A stretch of DNA of 52,609 nt from Candidatus Melainabacteria bacterium (GTDB lineage: Bacteria > Cyanobacteriota > Vampirovibrionia > LMEP-6097), in the NCBI GenBank assembly GCA_018695135.1, contig JABHOV010000052.1, positions 1-52,609 on the forward strand, read 5' to 3'. Made by a program: the position numbers and the translations under genes. Positions 6,902-48,731 of this stretch are shown in pieces (within the stretch, counting starts at the first letter, position 1; every line of letters begins with the position of its first letter). Below the pieces are notes generated by a model. That model had not been told where the DNA came from and ran no database searches. It saw only the letters and a list, made by a program, of their open reading frames with translations.

Positions 6902-6987
6902 CGTCATTGCGAGGGAATGAAATGACCGAAGCAATCTAGTGGATAGTTTTTAGATTGCCGCGCTGCATTCTGCAGCTCGCAATGACG
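6902..6987. repeat. CGTC-type REP-like inverted dimer, intergenic
   Basis: CGTCATTGCGAG...GAAGCAATCTA / TAGATTGCCGCG...CTCGCAATGACG. Confidence 0.92.
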
Positions 6988-7031
6988 ATTTTGTAAGGCT
7001 TCACCATACTTCAAAAAACTTATCTGCTTTA

Positions 7032-8330
7032 CTAAACCATTCCAGCATCACCTATATTAGGTTCAAAGTACTTAGACGGCAAAGTGATTTTACCAGCTAA
7101 TTTATAAGCAAGAATTTGTGCGTCTAGTAGGTTATCAGCGACTGCAGTCGCTCCAAAGATCTCAGATTCTTTATCGTGAGCTTCTTTAGAGCCAGTGAGA
7201 CCGTAGAAGACTAGTGGTAGACCAGAAAAACTCTCACTGATTTCACCAAGTTGCTTATTAATAGAATCCAAAGCACCGAGGTTCTGCCTATAACCCGCTA
7301 CACTGTCAGCGGTAACAACATTGACCGATAAAGCAGAGCCCAAGAACTTGTGAAGTCCTTCTTTATAAAAGCTAAGATCAAGGTTTGCTGATGCCATAAA
7401 CAATTCAAACAGATCTTCATCGAGTAGCGGCAAAATCACCTGCGCGTCAGAGTCAGCAAAACAAGTTCGGTATTGAAGTAGTTTGGGTTTATTTTTGTCT
7501 CTTGAATCTAAGACAATGTCAAAAGCCAGTAAACCAGAATAAGTTCTTCCTTCTTTAGCCATTGCAGCCAAAGTCGGATCTATAATTTCATTGCGAATTT
7601 GCATCATTAGATCAGGAGTCAAAACAGGTGTAGGTGCGTAAGCCCCCATATCTTGATATGAATCTAATTCATTTTCTTCTCTATAAGCTTGCACCGGCAA
7701 CAAAGACAGAGCCCTAGTACCGTCACAGACAGTGTTGATACTCAGCTTGGGACCTTCCAGAACCTCCTCAAAAATAACTTTGGAACTAGTTCTTGATAGA
7801 AAACGATTCTTGAACATACTCTTAATGACTTTATTTGCTTCAACAATGTCGCAAGCAACCCTTGCTGGTTTAGTTGTTTCAAATTCTTTATCAGCACAAA
7901 TTCTCAGTGGGTAACTTGCTCTTTCCAAAAAGGCTTCAGCTACAGCTTGATTATCAAAACAGACAAAACGTGGACCAGGTATCTCATTACGATAAATAAA
8001 ATCTCTTGCAAAAGCGTTTGAAGACTCAATTTCAGCAGCAGCCTGGGTCGGACCCATAATTAACTTATTGTTGGCTCTAAAGAGATCGACAATTCCCATT
8101 GTAAATAATCGAGAGTCACCTATTATTGTCAGATTAATATTGCGCGCAATAGCAATCTCTAATAATCTATCTATGTCATTAGTATCAACATCAACACATT
8201 CAGCAAGCTTGGCAAGCGCCTGATTACCGGGCGCAGCAACTATTTCTATATCACTAAATTTCTCAGAAGCTAATAGCTTCCAGATCATCGCATGTTCTTT
8301 TGAGCCGGAGCCTATGATGAGGAGTTTCAC
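7032..8330 (-). CDS. phosphoribosylamine-glycine ligase (PurD)-like protein with degenerate active-site motifs
   Basis: IGSGSKEHA, APGN, GPTQAAAEIESS, MGAYAP give the PurD fold, but KADGLAAGKG, QDHKR and EFNxRFGDPE are replaced. Confidence 0.8.
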   Translation of the reverse strand: MKLLIIGSGSKEHAMIWKLLASEKFSDIEIVAAPGNQALAKLAECVDVDTNDIDRLLEIAIARNINLTIIGDSRLFTMGIVDLFRANNKLIMGPTQAAAEIESSNAFARDFIYRNEIPGPRFVCFDNQAVAEAFLERASYPLRICADKEFETTKPARVACDIVEANKVIKSMFKNRFLSRTSSKVIFEEVLEGPKLSINTVCDGTRALSLLPVQAYREENELDSYQDMGAYAPTPVLTPDLMMQIRNEIIDPTLAAMAKEGRTYSGLLAFDIVLDSRDKNKPKLLQYRTCFADSDAQVILPLLDEDLFELFMASANLDLSFYKEGLHKFLGSALSVNVVTADSVAGYRQNLGALDSINKQLGEISESFSGLPLVFYGLTGSKEAHDKESEIFGATAVADNLLDAQILAYKLAGKITLPSKYFEPNIGDAGMV

Positions 8331-8350
8331 TTAGCTATTATCTCATGATA

Positions 8351-8574
8351 GTAGAAAAGCAGCAAGCTGCTGTTCTACGGTGGCGCTCACTTTGTTCGCT
8401 GGTTGCGCTTGCCTTTCAGGCTCGCTGGTTGCGGCACTTCGTGCCTGCCTCTTGTGTCAAAAGTCTTAGATTGTTCTCTTTTATGTTAGAAGCAGGACGT
8501 GAAACGTCCGCAACCAGGGAGCAAAGCGACCACAGCCAGCGAACAAAGTGAGCGCAACCGTCCTCGAAGAGGAC
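8351..8574. repeat. nested modular palindromic element between divergent genes
   Basis: Long imperfect inverted repeat 8377-8561 built from CAACCAG-NGA-hairpin modules; flanking hairpins 8351-8378 and GTCCTC-GAA-GAGGAC. Confidence 0.85.
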
Positions 8575-8595
8575 ACTAGCTATATAATAAAACTA

Positions 8596-12348: not shown

Positions 12349-12357
12349 TGCACCAAA

Positions 12358-12418
12358 TTCATCTATTTCTAATAGAATCATACACAAATGTGGTATAATT
12401 CTATTAGAAATAGATGAA
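12358..12418. promoter_or_regulatory. 21-bp perfect inverted repeat over TA promoter and start codon (putative operator)
   Basis: TTCATCTATTTCTAATAGAAT / ATTCTATTAGAAATAGATGAA flanking TGGTATAAT. Confidence 0.7.
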
Positions 12419-12734
12419 AAACGACGATAAAATCCAAATTCCATTAAATAGTCAACTCAAGGATGACTTTAAAGATAAATGTGAGAACATTGGATTTTCC
12501 TCTGTGAATGAAGCATTGAGAGTATTGATTCACAATTTTACCTACAACAACAATATCACTCTTCAGTTAATGAATCTAAATACAAAACCTATTCCACAAA
12601 ATCTGGACCATGAACTATTAGACAAAGAGACAGATCGACGCTTAGATGAAGCCTATCAAGCAATCAAGGATGGTGAGTATACAGCAGTAGATAGTTCAAA
12701 AAGTAACTGGCTCAAAAGACACCTTGAAAGCTAA
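12414..12734 (+). CDS. putative antitoxin (RelB/DinJ-like ribbon-helix-helix)
   Basis: KIQIPLNSQLKDDF...GFSSVNEALRVL; acidic C-terminus; TAATG overlap with the toxin gene. Confidence 0.7.
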   Translation: MKNDDKIQIPLNSQLKDDFKDKCENIGFSSVNEALRVLIHNFTYNNNITLQLMNLNTKPIPQNLDHELLDKETDRRLDEAYQAIKDGEYTAVDSSKSNWLKRHLES

Positions 12735-13021
12735 TGTACAAATTAATATTCACCAAACCTTTTGACAGAGACTTACGTAAGTTTTGCAAAAATAGAGAGC
12801 AGCTAATCAATAGAATTGAAAAAGTATTAGACATACTACAGGCTGATCCTTTTCACGAAATTCTCAGAACCCACAAAGTCAATAGTAAAAACCATGGCAC
12901 AGCTTTTAGCTCAAGAATTAATGGTGATCTCAGAATAATATGGAATTTTTCTCAGGACAAGATACAAATATTCTTACTTGATATTGGTGGGCATTCAGGT
13001 AAGGATAAAGTTTATAGTTAA
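12734..13021 (+). CDS. RelE/YafQ-superfamily toxin
   Basis: YKLIFTKPFDRDL, DPFHEILRTHK, SRINGDLRII, LDIGGH. Confidence 0.85.
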   Translation: MYKLIFTKPFDRDLRKFCKNREQLINRIEKVLDILQADPFHEILRTHKVNSKNHGTAFSSRINGDLRIIWNFSQDKIQIFLLDIGGHSGKDKVYS

Positions 13022-13102
13022 ACTAGATTAGAGCCTGTTCGAAAGTATCTCAACAAGGTGCAAATTTATTCAGAGATTGTCAAGCTCATTGGTATAGTAA
13101 AC

Positions 13103-13227
13103 AAAAGCTATCTCGAAAGTTCGAGAACGAGGCTTTTTTCGAGTAGCGGAACGGAGTTGGCTGAGCCGCCAATGTAGTGAGCAACACAGGAAAGTAACGA
13201 AGTTATCGGGCTTTCCAGGTAGCTTTT
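13103..13227. mobile_element. MITE/RPE-like palindromic element abutting clpC stop
   Basis: TIR AAAAGCTATCTCGAAAGTTCGAGAAC vs GTTATCGGGCTTTCCAGGTAGCTTTT; 21-bp core GAGTTGGCTGAGCCGCCAATG also present in acs. Confidence 0.8.
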
Positions 13228-15949: not shown

Positions 15950-16065
15950 TGTATTTTAGTTCCTTTCTATATTATTCACTTATTTAGCTCTACTGTATCA
16001 ATTCATTAGGTCGAATTAATAAATATAAAGTACGCTGAAAACCCCTATTGATGAGTAATACACAT

Positions 16066-16156
16066 TAGTGCGCTTTGTGCACTAGCCCATAGCGTCTTCG
16101 ACGCCTGCATTGCATACGCCACTTCGTGAACTTATGCAACGAGTAAAGCGAGCACA
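16066..16156. repeat. cluster of short hairpins
   Basis: TAGTGCGC-TTT-GTGCACTA, GCGTC-TTC-GACGC, TTGCATA...CAC-TTC-GTG...TATGCAA. Confidence 0.6.
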
Positions 16157-17215: not shown

Positions 17216-17370
17216 AAAGTTTTGCTATGAATTTAACTTACTCGGCTGCAAGCAACCGAGTTTTTCAAGTTAAATTCATCATTTTCTTCGAAAATGACCG
17301 GCAAAACTTTGATCGTCATTCCGTTCAATCCTTCGTGAGCAAGCTCTCAAGTTTTCACTCCATTCGGAAT
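17216..17370. repeat. branched palindrome plus degenerate CGTC element
   Basis: AAAGTTTTGC/GCAAAACTTT, ATGAATTTAACTT/AAGTTAAATTCAT, ACTCGG/CCGAGT, TCATTTTC-TTC-GAAAATGA; then CGTCATTCCG...CGGAAT. Confidence 0.7.
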
Positions 17371-19540: not shown

Positions 19541-22225
19541 GTGAAGAATCTCAGTTGCCAAGAAATAAGAGAAACATGGATTAATTTCTTTACTAAGAAA
19601 TGTGACCGTATACATCAGCATATCGCTTCAGGATCTTTAGTACCGGATAATCCAACCCTACTACTTAACGCTGCTGGCATGGTTCAGTTTGTACCGATCT
19701 TCGTGGGTACCAAACCTGCCCCCGAGCCGCCAAGAGCTGTCACAGTACAGAAATGTGCGCGTGTCGGCGGCAAAGACAGTGACCTAGAAAATATCGGGCG
19801 CACAACTAGACATCATAGTTTTTTTGAGATGCTTGGTAATTTCTCATTTGGGGATTATTTCAAAAACGAAGCAATCAAATGGGCTTGGCAATTCGTCAGA
19901 GAAGAACTTGAACTAGACGCTGATAAATTATATGTTTCTATCTTTGAAGGCGACGAGCAAAACCCAATGGACACTGAAGCCCAAGCAATTTGGCTAGAGA
20001 TACTTGCACGAGACTTCCCTGATTTAGAGCAGCGTCAAAAACGTATTTGGAAGATGGGTCGCAAAGACAACTTTTGGGGGCCTCCAGGTACTACCGGTCC
20101 TTGCGGACCTTGTAGCGAAATATACTATGATCTTGGTGATCACATCAGTGACCCAGAAGACAGGTATCTTGAGATCTGGAACTTGGTTTTCATGGAATTT
20201 CTTAAAGACGAAGAAGGCAAATTCACTCCACTTGAAAATAAAAATATAGATACTGGCGCAGGACTAGAAAGAATCGCAACGATATTACAAGGAGTTAACA
20301 ACTCTTTTGAAACCAATGAACTATTCAATGTAATGCAAAGCCTTGCCAAAGACCTTGGTCTAGAATATGGCAAAAATCCAGATCATGATCTTTATCTCAA
20401 GATCATCACTGATCACTTACGTTGTCTTTGTTTCTTGATAGCTGATGGTGTTAGACCAAGTAATATGGGACGCGGTTATGTCCTTAGAATGATCACAAGA
20501 CGCGCTGCTAGGTTTGTTTATTTAATCCGTAACCAAACAGATGCTTTTCTTTATAAGCATTGTACTAGCGTAATTCAAAACTACTCACTAGCCTACCCTG
20601 AGCTGCAAGCAAACTCAGAAGCGATTGTTTCAGTTTGCCGCAAAGAAGAGGAGGCTTTTGCCAAGACTATTGTCAATGGACTTGCTTTGCTTGAGGAGAA
20701 ACTCAAAGCGAGTGGCAAAATGGTAGACGGAGAATTTATTTTTGATCTTTATTCAACTTATGGCTTACCACTTGAATTAAGCAAAGACATTGTTGAAGAA
20801 CAGGGACTCACTATTGACCTAGAAGCATACCAAAAATCCAAAGACGCTCACTCCAAAGCCTCTGGCACAGGCAATTTCAAGACATCCGTTGAATCGAATT
20901 CTTATGTCGCTGACTTAATCAAAAAACATGGTCCAACTAAATTCCTTGGTTACGACCAGCTTGAAGCCAAAGCCAAAGTGCTTGCAATCCATGGCAATGA
21001 CATCGTGCTTGATCAAACTCCATTTTATGCTGAGTCTGGCGGGCAGGTGGCAGACTCTGGCACCATCCGTCATTGCGAGGCGAAGCCGAAGCAATCCAAT
21101 GGACAAGTTAAAGCCACAGACGTCATTGCGAGCGTAGCGAAGCAATCCAGAGTAACCAAAGTAAAAAAAATCGAGGGCATATTCATTCATACTCTTGAAA
21201 GCACTGAAGACTTTAATATCGGCGATGAAGTCACAGCTCAAGTCAACAGTAAAAGCAGAAACCTTACTGGCTATCACCACACAACTTGTCATCTCTTGCA
21301 AGCCGCCCTGCGCCAAGTACTAGGAAACGACATTCAACAAATGGGCTCGCAAGTCGGACCAGAATATACTCGCTTTGACTTTAACCTTGATAGAGCCATG
21401 ACTAAAGAAGAAATATTCAAGACAGAAAAGATAGTCAATGACTGGATTCAAGCCAAGCTACCAGTAGAAACTAAGGTCATGGATTTTGATGATGCAATTG
21501 CAGCAGGCGCCCTTAGTTTCTTTGAAGAGAAGTATGACGACCAGGTTAGGGTTTTGTTTATCAGAGACGATCAACAAACAGCATCTATTGAGTTATGCGG
21601 TGGCACTCACGTCTCTAACATCGGCGATATTAGAGAAGTAGTACTGGCTCAAGAGGGTTCAGTGGCTGCAGGCATTCGCCGTATTCGCATGCTCGCTCAT
21701 GACTTAGCTGCCAAGCACCGAGAAGAAGAAAAACTCAAAGAAGCTGCGTTAGCCCAAGAGCAAGCTGCTCAAGAAAAAGCAAAAGCAGAGGCTAAGGCGC
21801 AGAAACTAGAACAAAACAACTTAGTACTTACAAAAACTGATGAGATTCTCAGCAAATCAAACAAAACGACAGAAGCTCAAATCATCATTGCCAATCTTGC
21901 AGATTATTTTCCTGGCGAAGAACTTGAAACCGATGCTGTCAAAACTCTAATAGAAGCCTTGCTCAGCAAGATAGAATCATCTGGTTCTCAAGCCTTTATT
22001 TTAGTAGCTGCAGCAAGCACTAGCAAAGTCACTTTTATGGCAGCAGCCTCTCAAGAACTAGTTAAAGACAAAAACTCTAGATATAATGCCTCTAATGCAG
22101 TCAAAACGGCAGCCCAAATCTGCGGTGGTGGTGGCGGTGGTAGACCCAATTTTGCCCAAGCAGGGGGGAAAGACCCTAGCAAAGTCCCTGAAGCCCTACA
22201 ACTAATTCAAGAAGATACAAAATAA
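19541..22225 (+). CDS. alaS: alanine--tRNA ligase with repeat-derived insertion
   Basis: NAAGMVQF, RHHSFFEMLGNFSFGDYFK, EIWNLVF, DTGAGLER, HHTTCHLL, ELCGGTH, GGGGGRPNFAQAG. Confidence 0.98.
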   Translation: MKNLSCQEIRETWINFFTKKCDRIHQHIASGSLVPDNPTLLLNAAGMVQFVPIFVGTKPAPEPPRAVTVQKCARVGGKDSDLENIGRTTRHHSFFEMLGNFSFGDYFKNEAIKWAWQFVREELELDADKLYVSIFEGDEQNPMDTEAQAIWLEILARDFPDLEQRQKRIWKMGRKDNFWGPPGTTGPCGPCSEIYYDLGDHISDPEDRYLEIWNLVFMEFLKDEEGKFTPLENKNIDTGAGLERIATILQGVNNSFETNELFNVMQSLAKDLGLEYGKNPDHDLYLKIITDHLRCLCFLIADGVRPSNMGRGYVLRMITRRAARFVYLIRNQTDAFLYKHCTSVIQNYSLAYPELQANSEAIVSVCRKEEEAFAKTIVNGLALLEEKLKASGKMVDGEFIFDLYSTYGLPLELSKDIVEEQGLTIDLEAYQKSKDAHSKASGTGNFKTSVESNSYVADLIKKHGPTKFLGYDQLEAKAKVLAIHGNDIVLDQTPFYAESGGQVADSGTIRHCEAKPKQSNGQVKATDVIASVAKQSRVTKVKKIEGIFIHTLESTEDFNIGDEVTAQVNSKSRNLTGYHHTTCHLLQAALRQVLGNDIQQMGSQVGPEYTRFDFNLDRAMTKEEIFKTEKIVNDWIQAKLPVETKVMDFDDAIAAGALSFFEEKYDDQVRVLFIRDDQQTASIELCGGTHVSNIGDIREVVLAQEGSVAAGIRRIRMLAHDLAAKHREEEKLKEAALAQEQAAQEKAKAEAKAQKLEQNNLVLTKTDEILSKSNKTTEAQIIIANLADYFPGEELETDAVKTLIEALLSKIESSGSQAFILVAAASTSKVTFMAAASQELVKDKNSRYNASNAVKTAAQICGGGGGGRPNFAQAGGKDPSKVPEALQLIQEDTK
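21068..21148 (+). repeat. two direct CGTC-type units in frame in alaS
   Basis: CGTCATTGCGAGGCGAAGCCGAAGCAATCC (21068-21097) and CGTCATTGCGAGCGTAGCGAAGCAATCC (21121-21148). Confidence 0.92.
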
Positions 22226-22369: not shown

Positions 22370-22753
22370 ATGAGTCGAACGCAGAACTCACTTTATGAAA
22401 ATATACTACAGCAATTAGCAGTATATGTAGTTGAACCTTCCATGAGAGAAGGTATTAAGGATGGATTAAAAGAGGCTGTAAAAGAACTAAGAGACTTTCC
22501 ATATAGATCATTCGCAGGACCTCACTCTTACGATGGTTTTTTTAATTCGTTGCAGGACAGCATAAATTATCTACTCAAACCAGAGACTGATATAGAGACT
22601 TCACTCACTGTTGCAAGATACTTATTGAATCAATTAGAAAATAAAGTAGTAGTACTTCCTGAATCGTCAATTCCTTGCAATTCAAGGGTAAAACCGCATC
22701 AAAACAAGAATCGCAGACCCAGCGATACTCACTTATTCGCTAAAAATAATTAG
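22370..22753 (+). CDS. hypothetical protein
   Basis: 127 aa ORF downstream of a TTGCAT-N17-TATAAT promoter; start uncertain. Confidence 0.45.
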
Positions 22754-24904: not shown

Positions 24905-24969
24905 GCAACAATGATAGCATCGCTTCAAATAATTCATAGATATCTTGAGTCGCCAACACTAGATTTTCG

Positions 24970-25169
24970 TAAAAGCTCAATAATTTAAGGACAAGGTACT
25001 TCTCTGTGAATGAACATAGACGGAGCATGAACAAAACGAATTTTCCAAAAAGCAGCCTCGCAAAGTCAGCAGCTTCTTCGAAGCTGAACTGTACTCACTT
25101 TGCTACAGAACCTTTTTGGAGAAATTGTTTTGTCCACGTTCCTTAATTCATCTAGTAATGGAGCTTTTA
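24970..25169. mobile_element. MITE-like nested palindrome, intergenic
   Basis: TAAAAGCTC/GAGCTTTTA ends; ACAAAAC..AATTTTCCAAAAAG / CTTTTTGGAGAAATTGTTTTGT; CAGCTTC-TTC-GAAGCTG. Confidence 0.7.
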
Positions 25170-28321: not shown

Positions 28322-29089
28322 ATGCTAAACCAAGCCCTCAACTCAAGAAGCAAAAAAGATCAAGATCTTTTTGATAGCATAAGCAAACAGTATTTCAAGA
28401 AAGATTTAAACAAAGCATCAAGAATAGCTCGCAAACATAGACTCATTCAAACCCTAGGCAAGAACAATAAAAAACTAAGAGTATTAGAGCTCGGCTGCGG
28501 AGCTGGTTTTGGAGCCGAGTATCTTCAAGGCTACTATAGTCACTATACAGGAGTGGACTATTCTACTCAATTCATTAATCTTGCCAAACAAAGAAGCCAA
28601 GATCCCCAAGTCACTTGGATCTGTTCAGATTTTCTAGAACTCGATACTGATAATCAATATGATCTCATTTTTATGATTGGAGTTTTGCATCATATGGAAG
28701 ATATCAACGCTGCACTTAGAAAATGCTTTAAACTTTTAGCGCCAGGTGGCATTTTAATAGTTAATGAACCACAGCCAAATAATTTCTTGATTCACAACAT
28801 GAGGAAATTGAGAAAAAAACTCGATAGTCACTACTCTTCAGACCAAGAAGAACTTGAATCCCAGTTTATAACAGATAAATTCAAAGAAGTTGGTCTATGT
28901 GAAATCACAACTAGCCCGCAAGGCATCTTCTCAACTCCTTTTGCAGAGATTAGTTTCAAGCCCGAGTCTTTCTTTGCAGCCTTGGTTCAACAGTTCTGCA
29001 ACTGGGATAAATATTTGGAAAAACATTACCCTAAGATACTAAGTAATTGGACTTGGAATTGTATAGTATCTGGACAAAAAGCTAATTAG
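28322..29089 (+). CDS. class I SAM-dependent methyltransferase
   Basis: VLELGCGAG, GVDYS, YDLIFMIGVLHH, LAPGG. Confidence 0.9.
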   Translation: MLNQALNSRSKKDQDLFDSISKQYFKKDLNKASRIARKHRLIQTLGKNNKKLRVLELGCGAGFGAEYLQGYYSHYTGVDYSTQFINLAKQRSQDPQVTWICSDFLELDTDNQYDLIFMIGVLHHMEDINAALRKCFKLLAPGGILIVNEPQPNNFLIHNMRKLRKKLDSHYSSDQEELESQFITDKFKEVGLCEITTSPQGIFSTPFAEISFKPESFFAALVQQFCNWDKYLEKHYPKILSNWTWNCIVSGQKAN

Positions 29090-32911: not shown

Positions 32912-33993
32912 TCTATGATGTTGCAATTATTGGCGCCGGTATTTTTGGAATAGAGCTAGGACTTCTACTTGCTAGAAAAAACCTTAAAGTAATTATTCTA
33001 GAAAAAGAAAATAATATTTGCATGAGAGCATCTGCAAATAATCAAGCAAGAGTGCACAATGGCTACCACTATCCACGTTCTCGCGAGACATTAGTTGCTT
33101 CACACCGTCACTACAACAGGTTCCTAAGGGAATTTCATGATTGCATCAATTCAGATTTCACCAACTTGTACGTTTTAGCAAAAGACTCTCAAGTAAGCTC
33201 TGAAAATTTCAAGGCTCTCTGTGATCATCACGGACTTTATTGTAAAGAAGTTAATAGCCTCTATAAAGAATATTTCAATTTTGATTTAATTGACGATGTT
33301 TACTTAAGCCAGGAACTTGTTTTTGACATCAATAAAATCAGAAACAAACTTTTAGAGCAGCTAATGGAAGCGGGTATTGAGCTACGCTTAAACACCAGGA
33401 TAGAAGACCTAGACATTGCTCCAATTATCAAATTATCTTCTGCAAATGAAAGCTTTACATGTAAACAGGTTTTCAATGTGACCTATGCCAGCATAAATAA
33501 CTTACTCAAGAAACAGGACTTCGAAATTTTCCGTTTGAAATATGAGCTTGCTGAGATTTGCTTAGTTGATGTGCCAAAAGAACTGCAACAACTGGGAGTC
33601 ACAATTATGGATGGACCATTCTCTTCGATTCTTCCTTTCCCTACAACAAAGCAGCACTCGCTAAGTCATGTCAAATACAGTTCTCACATAAAATGCTACG
33701 CCAAAGATGGTCTACCTCCATCTTATGAAATGATTCCCGAAAAACTCAGCAGCAATTTTGATTTAATGAAAAATGATATTGCTCGTTTCATTCCAGCCTT
33801 AAGCAAAATGCAATACCAAGAATCATTCTATGAAACCAAAGCTCTTCTTGAAGCGCACGAAATTGATGATGGCAGACCGATATTAATAAAACAACATTGC
33901 GATAATTTCAGCTCCATCCTAGGATCCAAAATGGATAATATTTACGATCTCGAGCTTCAATTAGACAATGTTTTAGATTGCCAAATGCACTGA
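32908..33993 (+). CDS. FAD-dependent oxidoreductase (DAO-like)
   Basis: IIGAGIFG, RASANNQARVHNGYHYPRS, TIMDGPF. Confidence 0.88.
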   Translation: MIYDVAIIGAGIFGIELGLLLARKNLKVIILEKENNICMRASANNQARVHNGYHYPRSRETLVASHRHYNRFLREFHDCINSDFTNLYVLAKDSQVSSENFKALCDHHGLYCKEVNSLYKEYFNFDLIDDVYLSQELVFDINKIRNKLLEQLMEAGIELRLNTRIEDLDIAPIIKLSSANESFTCKQVFNVTYASINNLLKKQDFEIFRLKYELAEICLVDVPKELQQLGVTIMDGPFSSILPFPTTKQHSLSHVKYSSHIKCYAKDGLPPSYEMIPEKLSSNFDLMKNDIARFIPALSKMQYQESFYETKALLEAHEIDDGRPILIKQHCDNFSSILGSKMDNIYDLELQLDNVLDCQMH

Positions 33994-35411
33994 AAGGGTT
34001 CAGGTCCTATTCGTTGATAGTGCTTTTGGAAATAAGCATGCCTGTCTCGAGTCCGCTCATCATCAAAGACCGGCATAAAAGCAACTATTGGTCGTTCAGT
34101 GAGTTCTAACTTATCAAACTCTTGAAGATCAAAAGGGTCTTTCCCTGATACTCTAGCAATGTCATAGCTTTCAAACCAAAAATAATCAATATCATTATTA
34201 AAAATATAGGCGGGGCAAACCCGGCGATATGCAGCAATTGCCTGATCTCTACTGAAATGCTCTACGGCAAACTCAAGTGTCTTTTTCTGACCCAGATATC
34301 TCCGGCTCTCAACAAGTCTCGTTTTCCTTATATTGTTAGTCACCAAAGCCAATCCAATCAAAAATAGAATCACTAAGCGTTTTCCATTAAACTCTTTTTC
34401 AATCAGATAGTGATTAAGTCCTTGAGCTGCGTAGATAGAAATAAATGGCAAGAAAATAATGCAGTAATGAGGAAAAAGCCCATTGAAACAGCCGTAAAGT
34501 GACAATAAGCTACAAACTATCATTAGCCTTTGAGACTTCAACTTCAATCCAAGTGAAAACATCCCCAAGATAGCAGAGAGACAAAGCATAAAATCTTTTG
34601 CAAAATGGATGGCCGTATAGCGTAGTCCCAAATTCCCATAAGACCAATGGTTTGAAAAAAGAAAATTGAATATAGTATTGTAATATAGAAAATCTTTCAA
34701 AGCCCCTTGAGAATAGAAATACATGGCAAATAATCCATAAACAAACAATACTCCAAGTCCAAGGTATAGCCCGCTCTTTAATATCCGAGCTTCACGCTGC
34801 ATGTAATATTCATATAGAAAAAAGAGAGCGAGTGCTACTAGCAATATTATAGATTTAAAATTGCAAGAAATCATCAGACCAAAGCAGCAGCCACTAAGCA
34901 TCAAACGTAGAACTTGCTTAGAATTCAAATTCCGAATGAGAATATAGAAGCCTAGTAAAGCAAACACCGTCTGTAGAAGATCGGGTCTAATCTCAACTGC
35001 AACAGATTGGCTAATATGCCACATAGTAAACACCGTTGTGCTCAAGAGGGCTAAACTTCGCTTCTTTAAAAAAACTTTCGCAATTAAAAAAATCAAACAG
35101 AGAATTAACAAAGTAGAAAAAAAAGAGTAATGCCTAAAAATAATCAAAGTCTCAAAGCTTGCTGGGCTATCAAATTTGCTCAATAAGAAGCTATTGAATA
35201 AAGTGTAGAGAGGTCCATGATGTTCAAAGAAATCTCGATAAACCAACAAGCCATTGAAGTGATTCCATGCGTTATGCACATGCTGCAAACTATCTTGGTG
35301 AAAAGCCTTAGTGTATATGCTTAAATATATAGCAATAATATTATTGAGAAGAATTAATCCAGGCACAATAGTCCAAAGCTTCTTGTTGTTTTTCATCAGA
35401 AGGTCTCCCAT
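33957..35411 (-). CDS. polytopic GT-C/ArnT-like glycosyltransferase (paralog 2)
   Basis: Collinear with 29086-30525: QHVHNAWN, YRDFFEHHGP, EIRPDLLQ, CNFKSIILL, CPAY, DIDYFWFE, QCIW. Confidence 0.75.
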   Translation of the reverse strand: MGDLLMKNNKKLWTIVPGLILLNNIIAIYLSIYTKAFHQDSLQHVHNAWNHFNGLLVYRDFFEHHGPLYTLFNSFLLSKFDSPASFETLIIFRHYSFFSTLLILCLIFLIAKVFLKKRSLALLSTTVFTMWHISQSVAVEIRPDLLQTVFALLGFYILIRNLNSKQVLRLMLSGCCFGLMISCNFKSIILLVALALFFLYEYYMQREARILKSGLYLGLGVLFVYGLFAMYFYSQGALKDFLYYNTIFNFLFSNHWSYGNLGLRYTAIHFAKDFMLCLSAILGMFSLGLKLKSQRLMIVCSLLSLYGCFNGLFPHYCIIFLPFISIYAAQGLNHYLIEKEFNGKRLVILFLIGLALVTNNIRKTRLVESRRYLGQKKTLEFAVEHFSRDQAIAAYRRVCPAYIFNNDIDYFWFESYDIARVSGKDPFDLQEFDKLELTERPIVAFMPVFDDERTRDRHAYFQKHYQRIGPEPFQCIWQSKTLSN

Positions 35412-37105: not shown

Positions 37106-38090
37106 CTCTATACAAAAATTCTTGCATCAAATAGTCTTAGGCAATTCTTTCTTGGCTAGATCTTTATTTGAGATGGAGAAATCTTTATTTCATAAAAAAG
37201 ATGAGATCATAAGCAATGCTGAACATGTTTTCATCACAGGTTTACCAAGATCAGGAACTACTATACTGCTCAAAGCTCTTTATGAGACAGGAGATTTTGC
37301 TTCATCAACTTATGCAGATATGCCATTTGTCTTAGCGCCAAATTTATTCAAGCAATTTTCAAGCAAATCAAACTTACAAACTAAAGAGAGAGCTCAACAA
37401 GATGGCATAGAGCTTGATTTAACTTCCCCAGAAGCTTTTGATGAGGTTTTCTTCAAGGCTTTCACACAAGATGAGTCTCACGAGGAGCTACAAGCTTTTG
37501 TCTCACTCATCTTGAAGAAATATCAAAAAAAAAGATATTTAAGCAAAAACAATCTAAATTATCAACGTATTGAATTAATCAGCTCAGTTTTCCCTAATGC
37601 AAGATTCTTAATTCCATTTAGAGAGCCATTGCAACATGCTTATTCATTACTAAAGCAACATCAGCATTTTTACAAATTACAAAAGCAAGATAGTTTTGTT
37701 TTGGAATATATGAATTTACTCGGACATCATGAGTTTGGATTAAACCATATAGCTTGGAACCCAGCCCAGCAATACACAGATCCTTTTAGTCTTAGTTACT
37801 GGCTAGAACAATGGTGTATGTTCTATCAAAACATTCTCAAAGACAAGTCAAAACAATCAAGCCTCGTTTCTTATTCAAGGCTATGTGAAAGCCAAGAATA
37901 TAGACAAGCCTTGGTCACAGAACTAAAACTAACAGAGTTGACAACCGTCTTCAAGCTTGCACAAGCAGATATTCAAGAAGACTATGACAGAGATCTGTAT
38001 GATAAGTCTAACGAGATTTATCAAATCCTCAATTTGAGTAGTACGTGTAAAAGTTTAGGTGACCTAAGTCCCTACAAAGTACAATCATGA
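37092..38090 (+). CDS. PAPS-dependent sulfotransferase family protein
   Basis: FITGLPRSGTT 5'-PSB loop, FREPLQHAYS 3'-PB motif; likely start MQNYS. Confidence 0.85.
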   Translation: MQNYSSIQKFLHQIVLGNSFLARSLFEMEKSLFHKKDEIISNAEHVFITGLPRSGTTILLKALYETGDFASSTYADMPFVLAPNLFKQFSSKSNLQTKERAQQDGIELDLTSPEAFDEVFFKAFTQDESHEELQAFVSLILKKYQKKRYLSKNNLNYQRIELISSVFPNARFLIPFREPLQHAYSLLKQHQHFYKLQKQDSFVLEYMNLLGHHEFGLNHIAWNPAQQYTDPFSLSYWLEQWCMFYQNILKDKSKQSSLVSYSRLCESQEYRQALVTELKLTELTTVFKLAQADIQEDYDRDLYDKSNEIYQILNLSSTCKSLGDLSPYKVQS

Positions 38091-38241
38091 AAATATCGCT
38101 CACCCACTCTCTGTTACTGCATCAGTTTTTTCGAGTAATCACAGTCTGAAGCGCTATGTGAGGATCGATGACTGTAAACAGTCCTCACAAATATTTTCAG
38201 ATTGCACTTTGTAGGGACTTAGGTCACCTAAACTTTTACAC
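38045..38241. mobile_element. 197-bp MITE-like element with ~50-bp terminal inverted repeats
   Basis: 36-bp perfect IR GTGTAAAAGTTTAGGTGACCTAAGTCCCTACAAAGT extended by ~15 imperfect bp; inner TGTGAGGA/TCCTCACA. Confidence 0.88.
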
Positions 38242-41116: not shown

Positions 41117-41192
41117 ATTTAATCATGGCAAGACATAGTGGATGCACTGTATAGAGCAATTCTGCGAACAAAGATTTGTCATAATTGCACTA

Positions 41193-42367: not shown

Positions 42368-42404
42368 AGCTTAAAATAGCCAAATATGCTATATTGAACT
42401 TGTT

Positions 42405-43772: not shown

Positions 43773-43813
43773 AAATCAATTATAGCGAAACTCAGACCTC
43801 GACTGCCAGAAGC

Positions 43814-43911
43814 AGATTGCGAAGCAATCTCATATGCACTAGCCGCAGGCTAGCTAAGCAGGTCGTGAAACGACCATATGCAGCTTAGTTCCTATGCTTA
43901 GGAACTAAGCT
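43814..43911. repeat. array of four perfect hairpins between rne and folC
   Basis: AGATTGC-GAA-GCAATCT, CTAGCC-GCA-GGCTAG, GGTCGT-GAA-ACGACC, AGCTTAGTTCCTA-TGCT-TAGGAACTAAGCT. Confidence 0.85.
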
Positions 43912-45710
43912 TTTGCTTCATCACCACTAGGCTTGGGCATAGCACTAGTCGTATTCTCAACAATATGCGTTGCACCAAAGCTTTTAGTCTTGCTGCGATC
44001 ATTACTAGAACTAATGACAGCTGGGTTTTTAGTTTCCTTCGCTTCTTTAGGAGCTTCTTTCACTGCTGCTGATTTTCCTTTGTCATCAACGGGTTCTGAC
44101 TTTGTAGTCCCAGTACTTGTGTCTTTATTATCAGCACTTGGTCTTGGTCCACGATTTCGAGGTCCACCTCTTGAGTCGCGGTTATTATAGCGGCCTGATT
44201 TCTGATTATTATTACGTCCACCACTGCGTCTATCACCACCAGTACTGCTATCAGCTTGGTCACCTCGATCACTCTGTTCACTACGGTCGACAATACGATC
44301 ATTACGGTCAGGACGATCATTACGATCAGGACGGTCACTACGTTCAGGACGGTCATTACGGTCATTACGTTCAGGACGATCATTACGTTCAGGACGATCA
44401 TTACGTTCAGGACGATCGTTACGGTCAGGGCGGTCATTGCGATCATTACGGTTATTATAACTACGTTGATTGGTATTTCTTGGACGTCTATTGCCGTGAC
44501 TATGCGGAGCCTCATCAGTTTTCAAATTAAATAAAACACCAGTACCACTACAATGCTGGCAAGCAGTGCCAAAAGTTTCGGCAAGCGCTTGTCCAGATCT
44601 CTTACGAGTAATCTCAACCAAACATAAATCAGAAAGTTGTCCGACTTGTGGCTTAGCTTTATCAGGTCGAAGAGCCGTTTCAAGTACTTCCATCACAGTG
44701 ATACGATCTGCTCTTTCTGACATATCAATAAAGTCAATAATAATCATGCCACCAATATTGCGCAGTCTCATTTGTCTTGCAATTTCGACAGCAGCTTCCA
44801 TATTAGTTCTTCTAACCGTCTCACGCAAAGTGTTTGAGCTAGTAAATTTGCCCGAATTGATATCAATTGCAGTAAGCGCTTCCATACCTTGAATAACAAG
44901 GTAGCCGCCACTTGGAAGATTGACTCTATTAGAAAGGCAATTACGTAGTTCTTTAACTACATCTGTTTTAATCAAAACTTGATCAACATCATGATGAGTT
45001 AGATTAACTTCTCTACCAGTCCAGCTCTTAAGATGTTCTTGACACTTGTACTTCGCTTGCATGCCACCAACAACGATCTCATCGACACTAGTATTATAGT
45101 GGTCACGTAAAGTAGTGTATAAGAAATCAGATTCTTTATAGATCGCCCCATAGCCATCGAGCCTATCGTATTTATCAACTATATTTTTCCATTTCTCCCA
45201 GATAGTCAGAAAATCCTCTTCAAGTTCTTCTTGACTATGTCCTGCAGCCTCAGTTCTAATTACAACCCCAAGCTCTTCTGGCTTCATCAAATTGGTAATA
45301 GACCTCAATCTATCTCTTTCAGAATTCTCGCTAATTCTTCTACTGATTGCAATACCTTTGTTTTCACTAGTAAGAACATAGTATCTACCAGGAATCGAAA
45401 TCGCCAAATTGACTCTAGGACCCTTATTACCAGTGGGTTCTTTAACGATTTGAACCAAAAGTCTTTGTCCAGGACTCAACCTATCGTAAAGTAAACCTCT
45501 ACCGGGAATATCATTTGCATGAAGGAATCCCATTTGTCCATCTTGCAGCTTAACGAATACTGCATTGATTGATTGCATAATATTTTCTACTGTTACAGCA
45601 TAAACATCACCAACACTAAAATCATTTTTCTGAATAATAAAGTCTATTGCCTTGCCATTATCTAGCAATGCAGCAATATTATCCTGTTCGGAAATTACTA
45701 ATTGTCTCAT
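43905..45710 (-). CDS. rne: ribonuclease E/G family
   Basis: S1 domain, VQIVKEPTGNKGPR, IDINSG, RLRNIGGMIIIDFIDM, CQHCSGTG Zn link, disordered tail. Confidence 0.96.
   Translation of the reverse strand: MRQLVISEQDNIAALLDNGKAIDFIIQKNDFSVGDVYAVTVENIMQSINAVFVKLQDGQMGFLHANDIPGRGLLYDRLSPGQRLLVQIVKEPTGNKGPRVNLAISIPGRYYVLTSENKGIAISRRISENSERDRLRSITNLMKPEELGVVIRTEAAGHSQEELEEDFLTIWEKWKNIVDKYDRLDGYGAIYKESDFLYTTLRDHYNTSVDEIVVGGMQAKYKCQEHLKSWTGREVNLTHHDVDQVLIKTDVVKELRNCLSNRVNLPSGGYLVIQGMEALTAIDINSGKFTSSNTLRETVRRTNMEAAVEIARQMRLRNIGGMIIIDFIDMSERADRITVMEVLETALRPDKAKPQVGQLSDLCLVEITRKRSGQALAETFGTACQHCSGTGVLFNLKTDEAPHSHGNRRPRNTNQRSYNNRNDRNDRPDRNDRPERNDRPERNDRPERNDRNDRPERSDRPDRNDRPDRNDRIVDRSEQSDRGDQADSSTGGDRRSGGRNNNQKSGRYNNRDSRGGPRNRGPRPSADNKDTSTGTTKSEPVDDKGKSAAVKEAPKEAKETKNPAVISSSNDRSKTKSFGATHIVENTTSAMPKPSGDEAKA
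44295..44455 (-). repeat. 9/18-bp coding tandem repeat (NDR/PER/PDR) in RNase E tail
   Basis: Repeated CGTAATGATCGTCCTGAA-like units. Confidence 0.9.
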
Positions 45711-45782
45711 TTTGAACCTATCCTTTTATGTTTCAGGCTTGAAATCGCCTTTAGGAAATTTTTGCTGGTACTAACTGTGAAG

Positions 45783-48614
45783 CTAGACTAGCTCAGGAGT
45801 TTTTGTTGTCTTAAACACTTGTTCTTGTTTACAAATACTCCATTTAGAATTTGTTAGAAAGGCATTAAGAACTTCGTCAGGTCTTTGAGTTGACGTTAAC
45901 CTAAGTTCTAATTGTTCTGAATCTAAAAATTGCATACCGATTATATTGTCTCTAATATTCTTAGATTGCCCCTTGCCTCTCGGGTCTTTCTTGACCCCAA
46001 TCACTACGATCTCCCCTTGATCGAGAAAAGTTGTTAGACTTTGATCTAATTTCTGCTGAAATTCATCCTTATCTGTATTACCTAGATCATTATTCTGGCT
46101 GGAAAGCTCGTCATTCTGTATTAACTTTGCTGTATAAACCGTCTCTAGGACATCTTCAAGGGATAATCTTTCTTTAGAAGAGATCTCCGTCACCTCTACT
46201 ATTCTAGCTTGTTCTGGAAGTTCTTGGTTTAAAATTTCTTTTAATTTATCAAGATCTTCAAAAACCTCAGCCAGTTCTATAATCAAGTATTCCCCCATAC
46301 TCTCAACAAATAACGATAATGCATTCATCCAACTAATTTTGATACGCTGATTAAAGCCCTTGCTATGGACCAACGGCAAGCCAGAACGCCTGAAAGCACG
46401 CTCTAAAAGCCTCTGGAAATCCAAATGTGAAGCAAATCTATAGTCTCCAAGCTTAGTAATTTTTAATTTAATTCGTTGTTTACAAACCGTATTTCTGACA
46501 ATTATTTTAGGTTGCTTACTTGAAACTAGCTGCTCAGGCTCAATCACAGCCATACCTGTATTGACTAAAGCGTCCAAAAATAACAGGAGGTCGTGATATT
46601 TTTGTGCACGAATTAACCACTCTTGCTTCATAACATCTTGATCAGCCAATCTTGAGTCTTGATCAAGCGTTTCTACAAAAGGATTTGAATCAGAAAGATC
46701 TACTCCAACGATATTTTTCACATCGAGATTAAAACATACACCGCAAGCGTGACATTTATTTTCGGTACAAGGCGCAGTCTCAATTTCATCAACAGCTTGC
46801 TGCCATTCATGCACTAGAAACTTATCAGTAAAACCAATAGTCAAAACATCCCATGGCTGCTTTGAGCCAGGTTCCCTATGCTTAGTAACTTCCTTTTCGA
46901 TATCCAAACCACACTCAGCAGCAACCGTTTGCCAGCGATCAATATTGAAATGCTCAGACCAAGAGTCCATGCGAGAACCGGTCTCCCAAAGCTTTTGAAT
47001 AACTTGTCCCCATCTTCTATCACCACGTGATAAGACAGACTCTATCATTGCAAGTTCTGGCTCGGTGCAATTGAGCTTAATGTGTTTAGCTACTCTTCTT
47101 TGTCTTAATCCATCACGGATATATTTTTGTTTACGGTAAAATTCTGCAACACTGCATTGCGGGAACCACTGAAAGGCAGTAAATGTTTTTGGTACAAAAG
47201 TAGAAATAGTACAAGTGATCTTAAGAGGTGCTTTTCTTCCTTTGCCATTAAGTCCAGTAGCTCTGTGCAAATTTGCTGCCCACTCTAAAATATCTATGAT
47301 CCCATCAAGATCAGCATCTTCTTCAAAGGGTAAGCCAATCATAAAGTAGAGCTTGATTTGCTTCCAACCCTTGTCGTAAGTACCTTGTATGGCACGTTTA
47401 ATTTCTGCCTCACTAAGTCCCTTGTTAATAATGCGGCGCATTCTTTCGGTACCAGCTTCAGGTGCAAAAGTCATTCCAGATTTGCGCGCGCCTGAAACCT
47501 CATCTGCAAGCTGCACATTAAATCTATCAGCACGTTGTGATGGCATTGATAAACCAACTCCATTTTCTGCATGCTCTTCATTAATTGCATGAGCCGCTTC
47601 TGTCAGGCAAGTATAATCACTAGCCGACAATGACAACAGTGTAATGTCTTCATAACCAGACTGCTTGACTGACTCACCGCTCAATCTCAAAAGATCCTCT
47701 GCAGAGCGTTCACGCACTGGCAAGTAAGTATAACCAACTTGGCAAAAACGACAACCACGATCACAGCCACGGCGTATCTCAAGCACTTGTTTGTCTTGTA
47801 CTGTTTTGATATGCGGCACTGGACCAGAGATAGGGTTGTTAGAGTCGGTTAGGTATTGAGTGATTCTTTTTTCAACGGGGTAAGGAGGCTGCAAAGCTGT
47901 AGGGTTAGAAGGCTGTAGGGCTGTAAGGCTAGAAGGCTCTATGGGGCGTGGGATATAATTCTCGTCTAATTCATATAATGAAGGGACATATACTCCCTGT
48001 AATTGAGACAGTTGTAAAAGCAAATCTTCCCTTCCAGCCTTAGAACCCTCCAGCCTTAGAGCCTCAAGAAAATTAAGACACAAGTCTTGAATTTCTAGAA
48101 TCAACTCCTCTCCATCCCCAATAATAAAAAAGTCAAAATACTCAGCCATTGGCTCAGGATTAAAACACGCAGGCCCGCCAGCAAATACAAGTGGGTGACT
48201 TAGATCACGGTCTTTGGTTTTAAGTGGTAAGCCGGCAAGATCAAGTACATTGAGTACATTGGTGTAGCAAAGCTCGTAAGCTAGTGAGATCCCAATAAAA
48301 TCAAACTCAGCAAGTGGTTTGTTAGCCTCCCAAGACCAAAGCGGCATTTCATTGGCGCGCATCATCTCTTCCATATCAGGCATCACCGCAAAGGCTCTGT
48401 CACAAAGATAGTCAGGATGATTATTTACGATTTGATAAAGTAGTTTGAGCCCAAAGTTGGACATGCCAAGTTCATAAAGATCCGGGTAGACCAAAACCAT
48501 TCTTGACTTTGCTGAGTCCCAATCCTTGTGAGCCGCTCCCCATTCATTACCAAGATACTGTCCAGGTTTTTGAACTTGGGGGAGTATTTGGTTTCTTAGT
48601 TTGGTAGAAATCAT
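45783..48614 (-). CDS. B12-binding radical SAM protein (TIGR03960-type) fused to TIGR03936/DUF2344-like domain
   Basis: KPGQYLGNE, PDLYELGMSN, RGCDRGCRFC, TFAPEAG, KLYFMIGLP; C-terminal RFASHLD..ERAFRRSGLP..SKGFN; ATG 48632 comes from the repeat, so 48614 preferred. Confidence 0.9.
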   Translation of the reverse strand: MISTKLRNQILPQVQKPGQYLGNEWGAAHKDWDSAKSRMVLVYPDLYELGMSNFGLKLLYQIVNNHPDYLCDRAFAVMPDMEEMMRANEMPLWSWEANKPLAEFDFIGISLAYELCYTNVLNVLDLAGLPLKTKDRDLSHPLVFAGGPACFNPEPMAEYFDFFIIGDGEELILEIQDLCLNFLEALRLEGSKAGREDLLLQLSQLQGVYVPSLYELDENYIPRPIEPSSLTALQPSNPTALQPPYPVEKRITQYLTDSNNPISGPVPHIKTVQDKQVLEIRRGCDRGCRFCQVGYTYLPVRERSAEDLLRLSGESVKQSGYEDITLLSLSASDYTCLTEAAHAINEEHAENGVGLSMPSQRADRFNVQLADEVSGARKSGMTFAPEAGTERMRRIINKGLSEAEIKRAIQGTYDKGWKQIKLYFMIGLPFEEDADLDGIIDILEWAANLHRATGLNGKGRKAPLKITCTISTFVPKTFTAFQWFPQCSVAEFYRKQKYIRDGLRQRRVAKHIKLNCTEPELAMIESVLSRGDRRWGQVIQKLWETGSRMDSWSEHFNIDRWQTVAAECGLDIEKEVTKHREPGSKQPWDVLTIGFTDKFLVHEWQQAVDEIETAPCTENKCHACGVCFNLDVKNIVGVDLSDSNPFVETLDQDSRLADQDVMKQEWLIRAQKYHDLLLFLDALVNTGMAVIEPEQLVSSKQPKIIVRNTVCKQRIKLKITKLGDYRFASHLDFQRLLERAFRRSGLPLVHSKGFNQRIKISWMNALSLFVESMGEYLIIELAEVFEDLDKLKEILNQELPEQARIVEVTEISSKERLSLEDVLETVYTAKLIQNDELSSQNNDLGNTDKDEFQQKLDQSLTTFLDQGEIVVIGVKKDPRGKGQSKNIRDNIIGMQFLDSEQLELRLTSTQRPDEVLNAFLTNSKWSICKQEQVFKTTKTPELV
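47887..48063. repeat. two inverted octamer arrays (GGCTGTAG-like) in frame in radical SAM gene
   Basis: 47887-47940 GGCTGCAA AGCTGTAG GGTTAGAA GGCTGTAG GGCTGTAA GGCTAGAA; 48032-48063 TTCCAGCC TTAGAACC CTCCAGCC TTAGAGCC. Confidence 0.8.
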
Positions 48615-48626
48615 TTTTATTAAATC

Positions 48627-48731
48627 CGTCATTGCGAGGAACGAAGTGACGTGGCAATCCAGTGGATTAATTTCAAAAGTTTATTCAATAGTCAATGCAT
48701 TAGGTTGCTTCGCCTACGGCTCGCAATGACG
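48627..48731. repeat. CGTC-type inverted dimer filling the rpsJ-radical SAM spacer
   Basis: CGTCATTGCGAGGAACGAAGTGACGTGGCAATCC ... GGTTGCTTCGCCTACGGCTCGCAATGACG. Confidence 0.92.

Follow-up and report, generated by a model that had tools for sequence, protein, structure and literature searches.

Bacterial repetitive extragenic palindromes (REPs) have been divided into two superfamilies, one tagged with GTAG and the other with CGTC (Di Nocera, De Gregorio, Rocco 2013, PMC3733652). As described in the text of that study, CGTC-tagged REPs carry a CGTC or TGTC head, a stem that starts with A-T, and a tail near CCA; they are mostly arranged as head-to-head dimers, include intragenic copies, and have a wide phyletic spread, with dRS3 from Neisseria and RPE-4 and RPE-6 from Rickettsia among their members. 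The same text, which never uses the word GIY, states that they "apparently lack a dedicated transposase". The repeats analyzed here are found in a stretch of 52,609 nt from Candidatus Melainabacteria bacterium (contig JABHOV010000052.1), which in its whole length is referred to as the window. They consist of a CGTC head followed by a short nested palindrome whose apex is mostly a GNA triloop. With a probability of about 0.6, these repeats are CGTC-tagged REPs and, at the same time, Ssn-related motifs (SRM), representing a subfamily with a nested architecture and a GNA apex that would have a role in the folding of single-stranded DNA (ssDNA).

SRM are the generalized form of a Neisseria motif named NTS, CGTCATTCCCGCGMAVGCGGGAATCYRG (Chenal et al. 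2025, PMC11893778). As reported in the text of that work, SsnA, a single-domain GIY-YIG protein of about 95 aa, acts on the motif solely in its ssDNA form and solely on the tagged strand, to which it binds and which it cuts a few bases upstream; double-stranded DNA or RNA of the same sequence is neither bound nor cut. Binding depends most on the C that follows the palindrome, and cleavage most on the three bases that precede it. The activity shown there for Ssn is cutting, not transposition.

The loop of the repeats has its closest counterpart in the DNA mini-hairpins of the type d(GCGNAGC), which as DNA resist heat and nucleases to an unusual degree. In the text of a review on the subject (PMC13037366), only the GNA sequences fold among the 64 possible GCNNNGC, a C-G closing pair is needed, and stems of the type GC/GC and CC/GG work, whereas CG/CG and GG/CC fail. 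The sequence d(GCGAAAGC) melts at 76.5 C, compared to 39 C for its RNA version. Natural d(GCGNAGC) sites are found in the origin of phage G4, in ssiA of RSF1010, and in the promoters of the virion RNA polymerase of phage N4.

Both the family of repeats and an ssDNA-specific nuclease are already in print, and the broad idea is not new. Two aspects appear to be new. The first is the subfamily ATTGC/GAG...GAA itself, which seems to be missed by the published SRM pattern and differs from the families described in the text of Di Nocera et al., although the figures or supplements of that study may list it. The second is that the apex follows the d(C-GNA-G) mini-hairpin rule, something that also seems to apply to a second group of hairpins in the window, tagged with GCAG. 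The supplementary tables of Chenal et al. contain neither the core string of the unit nor any entry from Melainabacteria, and literature searches by sequence string (12-mer, 22-mer, their reverse complements, the heads of sister families, and peptide readings) returned no relevant paper.

CGTC units in the window

The core family comprises ten units of the form CGTC-ATTGC-GAG, a variable inner mini-hairpin, and G(A/T/C)(A/G)-GCAAT-C. All ten hold the exact, unpaired CGTC head, with GTC before the palindrome and C after it. The outer stem ATTGC...GCAAT is present in nine units, the remaining one having GCAAC, and a GNA triloop is found on the CGTC strand of nine, the exception being the unit at 23236 (+). 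The tails read CCA in five units, CTA in four, and CTT in one. Four head-outward inverted dimers account for eight of the units and a direct tandem for the other two, so that four of the five pairs are head-outward. When folded as ssDNA and compared to shuffled sequences, three of the four dimers reach z values from -4.7 to -6.2 and the fourth -2.8; the tandem pair (21068/21121) does not stand out from its shuffles.

These units resemble the CGTC-tagged REPs, as these are described in the text of PMC3733652, in their head, their A-T-started stem, their CCA-like tail, their type of dimer, and the presence of intragenic copies. They differ in that the published stems are of 8-9 bp with loops of 4-5 nt, whereas in the window units an outer stem of 5 bp is followed by an internal loop of purines and then by a nested apex that varies in length and ends mostly in a 3-nt GNA loop. 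With the SRM they share the HGTCWY head and the C after the palindrome, and the consensus of the NTS loop, GMAV, starts with G-M-A. The bases described as critical for SsnA are exactly those that are invariant in the window units, that is, GTC before the palindrome and C after it.

The first dimer lies between convergent open reading frames (ORFs), directly after a terminator-like hairpin. Its left arm (6902-6936, +) holds an inner AT-GAA-AT within GG..CC, and its right arm (6953-6987, -) holds CTGCA-GAA-TGCAG; the dimer has a z of -5.2 as ssDNA. At the other end of the family, the unit at 48627-48659 (+), with apex AC-GAA-GT, faces the unit at 48703-48731 (-), with GCC-GTA-GGC, which lies 3 nt from the stop codon of the gene for ribosomal protein S10. 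The former overlaps the listed ATG of a radical-SAM/DUF2344 ORF (45783-48632, -), which is simply the CAT within the CGTC head at 48627-48632; the true start of this gene is probably located further in.

Six of the ten units are in frame inside genes, two of them in an alanyl-tRNA synthetase and four in an acetyl-CoA synthetase. The direct tandem (21068-21096, +, GGC-GAA-GCC, and 21121-21147, +, GC-GTA-GC) represents a 27-aa insertion in the alanyl-tRNA synthetase ORF 19541-22225 (+), missing from the 75%-identical homologue P0002, and homologues at about 60-70% identity show apparent remnants of one unit at the same site. Among named organisms, the best relatives of this synthetase come from Candidatus Melainabacteria. 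In the acetyl-CoA synthetase ORF 22733-24937 (-), the first dimer consists of the unit at 22951-22985 (+), with GTCGCC-GAA-GGCGGC and one T.G pair, which is an insertion relative to 2p20_A near query aa 636-663, and of its partner at 23004-23030 (-), with GT-GAA-AC (z of the dimer -6.2). The second dimer is formed by the unit at 23236-23269 (+), whose apex CGTC-AGC-GACG is the sole non-GNA one, and by the unit at 23277-23303 (-), with GC-GAA-GC, at query aa 545-567. Each of these two dimers adds about 19-27 residues to the enzyme when compared to the Salmonella structure. Insertions of this size in essential enzymes of a Melainabacteria-like genome make in-frame units a source of odd peptides in proteins predicted from metagenomes.

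The same gene harbors a different repeat of about 49 nt, with its core at 23887-23935 (region 23882-24022) and a second copy at 13154-13202 that is 76% alike and in inverted orientation. It contains a TTGGC...GCCAA hairpin without a GNA loop and occupies a stretch of about 47 residues (query aa 306-352) that has no counterpart in the Salmonella structure. It thus appears to be a third, unrelated element in frame in acetyl-CoA synthetase.

The initial annotation of the window had stated that in inverted CGTC dimers each strand usually receives one GNA loop. This holds for seven of the eight units of the four dimers, the unit at 23236 (+) being the one that departs, and inverted symmetry is enough to produce such an arrangement automatically.

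GNA triloops compared to chance and to coding DNA

The window has about 39% G+C and is densely coding, with only about 4.8 kb of non-coding or repeat DNA. All perfect hairpins with a 3-nt loop were counted along its whole length and compared to 100 dinucleotide-preserving shuffles, with the coding DNA as an internal control; a loop was taken as GNA on either strand, that is, when read as GNA or TNC. The excess grows with the length of the stem: 44 of 279 hairpins with stems of at least 4 bp have such a loop (32.6 expected), 19 of 82 with at least 5 bp (8.7 expected), and 11 of 29 with at least 6 bp (2.4 expected). GNA loops are concentrated in non-coding and repeat DNA, where they account for 12 of 21 hairpins with stems of at least 5 bp, compared to 7 of 61 in coding DNA (Fisher p=7e-5), and for 17 of 45 with stems of at least 4 bp, compared to 27 of 234 (Fisher p=6e-5). 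Chance or base composition as the source of the excess is ruled out by the shuffles and by the coding-DNA control. All 12 stem-loops quoted in the initial annotation were located at or inside the span that it covered, and the enrichment over background that it expected from a tabulation of loops is confirmed for the window.

The effect is restricted to 3-nt loops, since loops with G and A at their ends are not in excess among the non-coding loops of 4 nt (2 of 25) or 5 nt (1 of 34). Of the 17 non-coding GNA hairpins, nine are closed by C-G, four by T-A, two by A-T, and two by G-C, while of the 27 in coding DNA, 17 are closed by T-A, six by A-T, two by C-G, and two by G-C. Ten of the non-coding GNA hairpins are on the plus strand and seven on the minus strand; the GC skew of the window is uniformly negative.

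The same unit across phyla

A scan of species-representative genomes for the head, a gap of 2-32 nt, and GCAATC found the subfamily in at least 130 loci, distributed over Alpha- and Gammaproteobacteria, Bacteroidota, Chloroflexota, Nitrospirota, Planctomycetota, Patescibacteria, Firmicutes, Melainabacteria, and others. The counts given below for the different phyla refer to the loci listed, with the window included. None of the fetched loci is homologous to the window outside the repeat, and no plasmid matched when the window's own dimer served as query. Since a subfamily present in at least 130 loci is invisible to the SRM pattern, surveys of Ssn substrates based on it would undercount them.

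These loci hold 120 distinct hairpin segments in 193 copies. Their minimum free energy (MFE) folds contain 123 loops, 62 of them triloops, of which 46 are GNA and two TNC (binomial p=8e-12); counted by copies, GNA accounts for 110 of 196 loops. The GNA triloops are closed by C-G in 36 of the 46 cases and by G-C in only three, they cap 24 different stems of 2-8 bp, and their central base is A in 25 distinct units, C in 12, T in six, and G in three. In 114 of the 120 distinct segments, the stability of the tag strand exceeds that of its complement. The commonest unit reaches only -2.5 kcal/mol in the nearest-neighbor model, which has no terms for sheared G.A pairs.

The likeness to the d(GCGNAGC) mini-hairpins therefore includes the GNA loop with any N (46 of 62 triloops, with all four bases as N) and the C-G closing pair. 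The known cases of these mini-hairpins are single functional sites, with a function in ssDNA that is read by a protein, whereas the repeats described here form a dispersed family capped by the motif. The mini-hairpin rule gives a physical reason for the function of such short stems. If the apex obeys it, the rule would also provide a testable design rule for the substrates of Ssn proteins, which are now under development as ssDNA tools.

A different origin for the loop has to be weighed at this point, in which there would be no selection on it at all. GNA would be inherited from one ancestral GC-GAA-GC apex, and the stems would vary by template switching in quasi-palindromes or by nested insertions, with the center of symmetry kept. 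The copies are indeed related by descent, and the commonest forms are the minimal GC-GNA-GC (26 copies with A, 14 with C, seven with T, and five with G). Nested extra hairpins are found inside the arms, for example in loci L017 and L021, and the usage of N departs from the order of stability. However, GNA is kept by 24 different stems against only two with TNC, and the strong preference for C-G over G-C as closing pair is an asymmetry that a symmetric mutational process doesn't predict. The same apex is also present in the independent GCAG-tagged family, as well as in enterobacterial REPs associated with RAYT transposases, which carry GC-GNA-GC with a variable N (Nunvar 2010 Table 1, PMC2817692). 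Descent as the sole explanation is thus considered distinctly improbable.

The units are arranged as head-outward dimers in 81 of the 130 loci, as single units in 24, and tail-outward in four. Among 99 dimers, 77 lack a target-site duplication, 86 have a pyrimidine upstream of the head, and 84 have a purine after the element. Sister families keep the YGTCAT head and change the outer stem together with its complementary partner, as in ATCGC/GCGAT, ATTCC/GGAAT, ATTCT/AGAAT, and ATCCCGGC/GCCGGGAT. A sister CGTC-tagged element with another outer stem (ATTCCG...CGGAAT) is also found in the window itself, at 17314-17370 (+).

Link of the subfamily to ssn genes

The architecture published for SRM, in which an ssn gene, encoding a GIY-YIG protein of the cd10448 type, is flanked by the motif on both sides, has its counterpart in locus L052 and in five of the five plasmid loci inspected. 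In L052, an ORF for a GIY-YIG protein of 97 aa ends 6 nt from an ATTGCGAG unit. Its product is 44% identical to a Neisseria ORF of the ssnA type, and the latter is confirmed to be flanked by copies of NTS. Among the 120 relatives of the L052 protein listed, ten have extended ORFs, three of which read into units of the GCAAT type. The five plasmid ssn homologues, from Planktothrix, Rhizobium, Spirosoma, Azospirillum, and Novosphingobium, have head-outward hairpins tagged with CGTC or TGTC on both sides. The full YGTCAT head is present in four of them; the copy in the Novosphingobium plasmid has CGTC followed by a GC stem.

In the Azospirillum lipoferum plasmid (L134, 488-996), a GIY-YIG gene of 97 aa with a CGTC-hairpin dimer on each side separates sufB from sufC, an arrangement reminiscent of a small cassette inserted into an operon. 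Similar GIY-YIG cassettes are found in Spirosoma (L133), between two glycoside hydrolase genes, and in Planktothrix (L131), between the defense genes for MmeI and DrmA. In the latter (294-1132), TGTCATTCTGAG heads form arrays in alternation with complete units that bear GT-GAA-AC or GC-GAA-GC at the apex. Many of the heads are truncated copies that recur at intervals of 23 nt, a pattern suggestive of tandem amplification of the head only.

Hairpins in DNA or in RNA

A function of the hairpins in RNA, with GNA as an RNA feature, is an alternative to folding in ssDNA. The hairpins could act as stabilizers of mRNA 3' ends, as processing sites, or as modulators of translation. An RNA function is what Di Nocera et al. 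argue for in the text of their study (PMC3733652), from the position of the repeats downstream of ORFs and from G-T pairing, and G.T pairs are present here too, in the stems of the loci listed (11 of 340). Both units in the alanyl-tRNA synthetase gene are sense. Likewise, single units are sense to a Pfam-confirmed neighbor in L020, L035, L036, L037, and L047, and weakly in L059 and L122, being antisense only in L105. The initial annotation had proposed strand bias relative to transcription as a way to tell both roles apart, and the outcome is divided. A cluster of four GNA hairpins at 43812-43910 is antisense to both flanking ORFs, as a DNA role would allow, and single units elsewhere lean toward the sense strand with five firm and two weak cases against one, a trend that is not significant (p=0.07-0.22).

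Apart from this antisense cluster, several observations speak against the RNA alternative. Head-outward dimers put one unit on each strand, and there is no excess of 4-nt loops, where stable RNA loops such as GNRA and UNCG would fall. The lack of target duplication is likewise counted in favor of DNA. RNA also lacks the stability of the DNA mini-hairpin, r(GCGAAAGC) melting at 39 C and its DNA counterpart at 76.5 C in the text of the review (PMC13037366), and SsnA, as reported in the text of PMC11893778, does not bind RNA of the same sequence. The units have no Rfam match; the search of the window, at both gathering and E-value thresholds, and of 20 loci returned only the tRNA and chance matches of a microRNA-like kind. 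All in all, RNA is an unlikely main explanation, and DNA and RNA roles are not mutually exclusive.

GCAG-tagged hairpins

Besides the CGTC units, five hairpins of the window with a stem of at least 5 bp and a GAA loop are directly preceded by GCAG. This is the top 4-mer before such hairpins, with 5 observed compared to 0.085 expected; none of 200 simulations gave more than 1. Two of these hairpins are located at 8433-8448 (-), with GGCAC-GAA-GTGCC, and at 8492-8509 (+), with GGACGT-GAA-ACGTCC (hairpin 8495-8509). A third one, at 16092-16108 (-), has GCGTC-GAA-GACGC (hairpin 16092-16104) and is sense to the flanking minus-strand ORFs. The remaining two belong to the antisense cluster already mentioned: in the hairpin at 43812-43830 (+), (A)GATTGC-GAA-GCAATC(T), the outer stem of the CGTC family is closed directly by GAA, and the hairpin at 43858-43875 (+), GGTCGT-GAA-ACGACC (43861-43875), is a compensatory variant of the copy at 8492. 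The compensatory change noticed in the initial annotation between these two is a double change from A-T to T-A in AAGCAG-tagged copies that are otherwise identical. The cluster is completed by CTAGCC-GCA-GGCTAG at 43839-43853 (+) and by GCTTAG-GAA-CTAAGC at 43896-43910 (+), the latter with a G-C closing pair and an MFE fold that extends it instead to a 13-bp stem with a 4-nt loop. Nearest-neighbor energies of both DNA strands of 43806-43916 and 16040-16150 did not differ in any useful way.

Only the GCAG subset with stems of at least 5 bp and a GNA loop stands out in the tests on tags. When any hairpin with a stem of at least 4 bp and a loop of 3-6 nt is considered, the numbers compared to those expected from a Markov model are 11 to 15.1 for GCAG, 7 to 9.5 for GTAG, and 14 to 12.9 for TGTC; CGTC gives 10 compared to 4.9, which is within the simulated maximum of 11.

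Three other GNA hairpins of the window do not belong to this group. The one at 8560-8574 (+), GTCCTC-GAA-GAGGAC, has CC in front and reads ..ACCGTCCTC.. in its context. The hairpin at 17279-17297 (-), TCATTTTC-GAA-GAAAATGA, is an arm of a branched palindromic element upstream of ftsH, and CAGCTTC-GAA-GAAGCTG at 25070-25086 (-) is the apex of a long imperfect palindrome. The region 8370-8575 is a large composite palindrome between divergent ORFs, with two sub-repeats, CGCTGGTTGCG and CGCAACCAG, each of them next to a GAA hairpin tagged with GCAG. The GTG listed as a start codon at 8548 falls inside this palindrome and is probably not a real start.

The GCAG tag leads to the REP systems mobilized by RAYT proteins, transposases of the HUH tyrosine type related to IS200/IS605. 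These REPs and REPINs (Nunvar 2010, PMC2817692; Bertels and Rainey 2011, PMC3116915) share with the repeats of the window a tag next to an imperfect palindrome that is read in ssDNA form, an arrangement in inverted doublets, and the occurrence of compensatory changes, and several enterobacterial REPs carry a GC-GNA-GC apex on the tag strand (Nunvar Table 1, PMC2817692). They differ from the CGTC units in their tag and in the class of their enzyme, an HUH tyrosine transposase, and E. coli REP, with TTCAC on the tag strand in the same table, indicates that GNA is not general among these REPs. The repeats could nevertheless be regarded as REPINs mobilized by a RAYT, or as miniature inverted-repeat transposable elements (MITEs) of a DDE transposase. 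Like REPINs, they form head-outward doublets that fold into hairpins, their lack of target duplication fits an HUH enzyme, and the GCAG tag fits GTAG, although only in its degenerate GYAG form. Against such an assignment, the head of the main family is CGTC and not GTAG or, more broadly, GT[A/G]G, no transposase has been linked to CGTC-tagged REPs in the text of PMC3733652, a Pfam scan of 38 ORFs of the window detected no Y1 or DDE transposase, and the gene found beside such units encodes a GIY-YIG protein. Mobilization by either type of transposase is therefore regarded as very unlikely. The lack of target duplication in 77 of 99 dimers led to the rejection of MITEs of the DDE type, and no RAYT/HUH domain was found in the 38 ORFs scanned.

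The presence of the same apex in the GCAG-tagged family means that the GNA rule is not private to one family, and it may point to convergence between families of repeats that different enzymes act upon. The initial annotation had proposed a structural code shared by the repeat families. That proposal stands for the CGTC and GCAG families of the window and fails for the sister CGTC families elsewhere, with loops such as CTTG, TTTA, GTCA, and GAAA.

Proposed mechanism and its weight

In the mechanism proposed for the units, the unpaired CGTC head, the 5-bp ATTGC/GCAAT stem, a purine internal loop, an apical mini-hairpin, and the single C after the palindrome would each have a place. The head, the outer stem, and the C tail would be the part that is read by its sequence. 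The apex varies in sequence and length, being mostly d(C-GNA-G). The contexts C-GA-G and C-GA-A permit tandem sheared G.A pairs, and the internal loop, with GAG opposite GAA, GTG, or GCG, could form them. In a hairpin whose outer stem offers no more than five Watson-Crick pairs, the GNA triloop, the C-G pair that closes it, and the G.A pairs may give a fast and lasting local fold to DNA that is transiently single-stranded, in competition with the single-stranded DNA-binding protein (SSB) and with the long hairpin of the dimer, which pairs the two 12-nt heads. If the apex aids folding in this way, selection is proposed to keep any stem capped by GNA and not a particular sequence. The units would spread without target-site duplication, mostly as head-outward inverted pairs, and survive inside genes where the reading frame remains open.

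A broader reading, put forward only tentatively, regards these repeats as a distinct, cross-phylum class of Ssn-type substrates built from two modules. One would be a sequence-read foot, formed by the CGTC head, the 5-bp A-T-started stem, and the C tail, and the other a freely evolving d(C-GNA-G) apex, braced by sheared G.A pairs, which would nucleate the folding of ssDNA. Under this reading, the same rule in GYAG/GTAG repeats with unrelated nucleases would represent a convergent structural code.

Selection on folded ssDNA that is read by a nuclease was already suggested in the initial annotation. The suggestion agrees with the published Ssn biochemistry and with loop statistics that fit the DNA mini-hairpin rule, and it lacks an Ssn gene and a match to the SRM pattern in the window; the mobilizing role given there to the nuclease goes beyond the cutting shown for Ssn. 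These two shortcomings also count against the assignment of the repeats to CGTC-tagged REPs and SRM with an ssDNA role. No ssn-like ORF is present in the window or in the flanks of the other 129 of the 130 loci listed. The published SRM pattern has 0 sites in the window, and two test strings composed for the ATTGCGAG unit are not matched by it either, although it does match L050, L132, and L134. In addition, alterations of the palindrome that keep the hairpin abolish SsnA activity, as reported in the text of PMC11893778, so that recognition is not purely structural. Other points of the same sign come from the loops themselves. Considering distinct inner hairpins with stems of at least 3 bp (n=51), 19 have a GNA loop, two a TNC loop, seven another triloop, 13 a tetraloop, and 10 a longer loop, so GNA is the commonest loop and not an invariant one; the sister CGTC families, as mentioned, often have other loops. 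The usage of N follows the order A>C>T>G, unlike the published order of stability A>G>C>T. As nearest-neighbor energies miss the sheared G.A pairs, the argument on stability rests on the oligonucleotide literature and not on the window sequence. The sense lean of the single units goes in the same direction, and the copies, being related by descent, are not independent events in the counts.

Other features of the window

A palindrome with a 26-nt arm, 96% complementary, is located at 12358-12418, directly upstream of an ORF of 106 aa. This ORF is followed by an unlisted one of 96 aa (12414-13021 for both) with YafQ/YoeB toxin domains, and the whole region 12358-13021 is likely a toxin-antitoxin pair with its operator.

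An inverted repeat of 42 nt, 98% complementary, has its arms at 38045-38086 and 38200-38241, 113 nt apart. It reaches from the end of a sulfotransferase-like ORF into the region upstream of recJ, and it encloses a GTGAGGA...TCCTCAC hairpin.

The gene for an RNase E/G holds about 16-24 tandem units of 9 nt (ACG[A/G/T]TCA[T/G][T/G]-like) at 44268-44486, which encode a repetitive tail on the minus strand. Finally, two paralogues of glycosyltransferases of the PMT_2 type (29086-30525 and 33957-35411) are encoded on the same strand, 4886 nt apart, and are 71-75% identical over long stretches of DNA.

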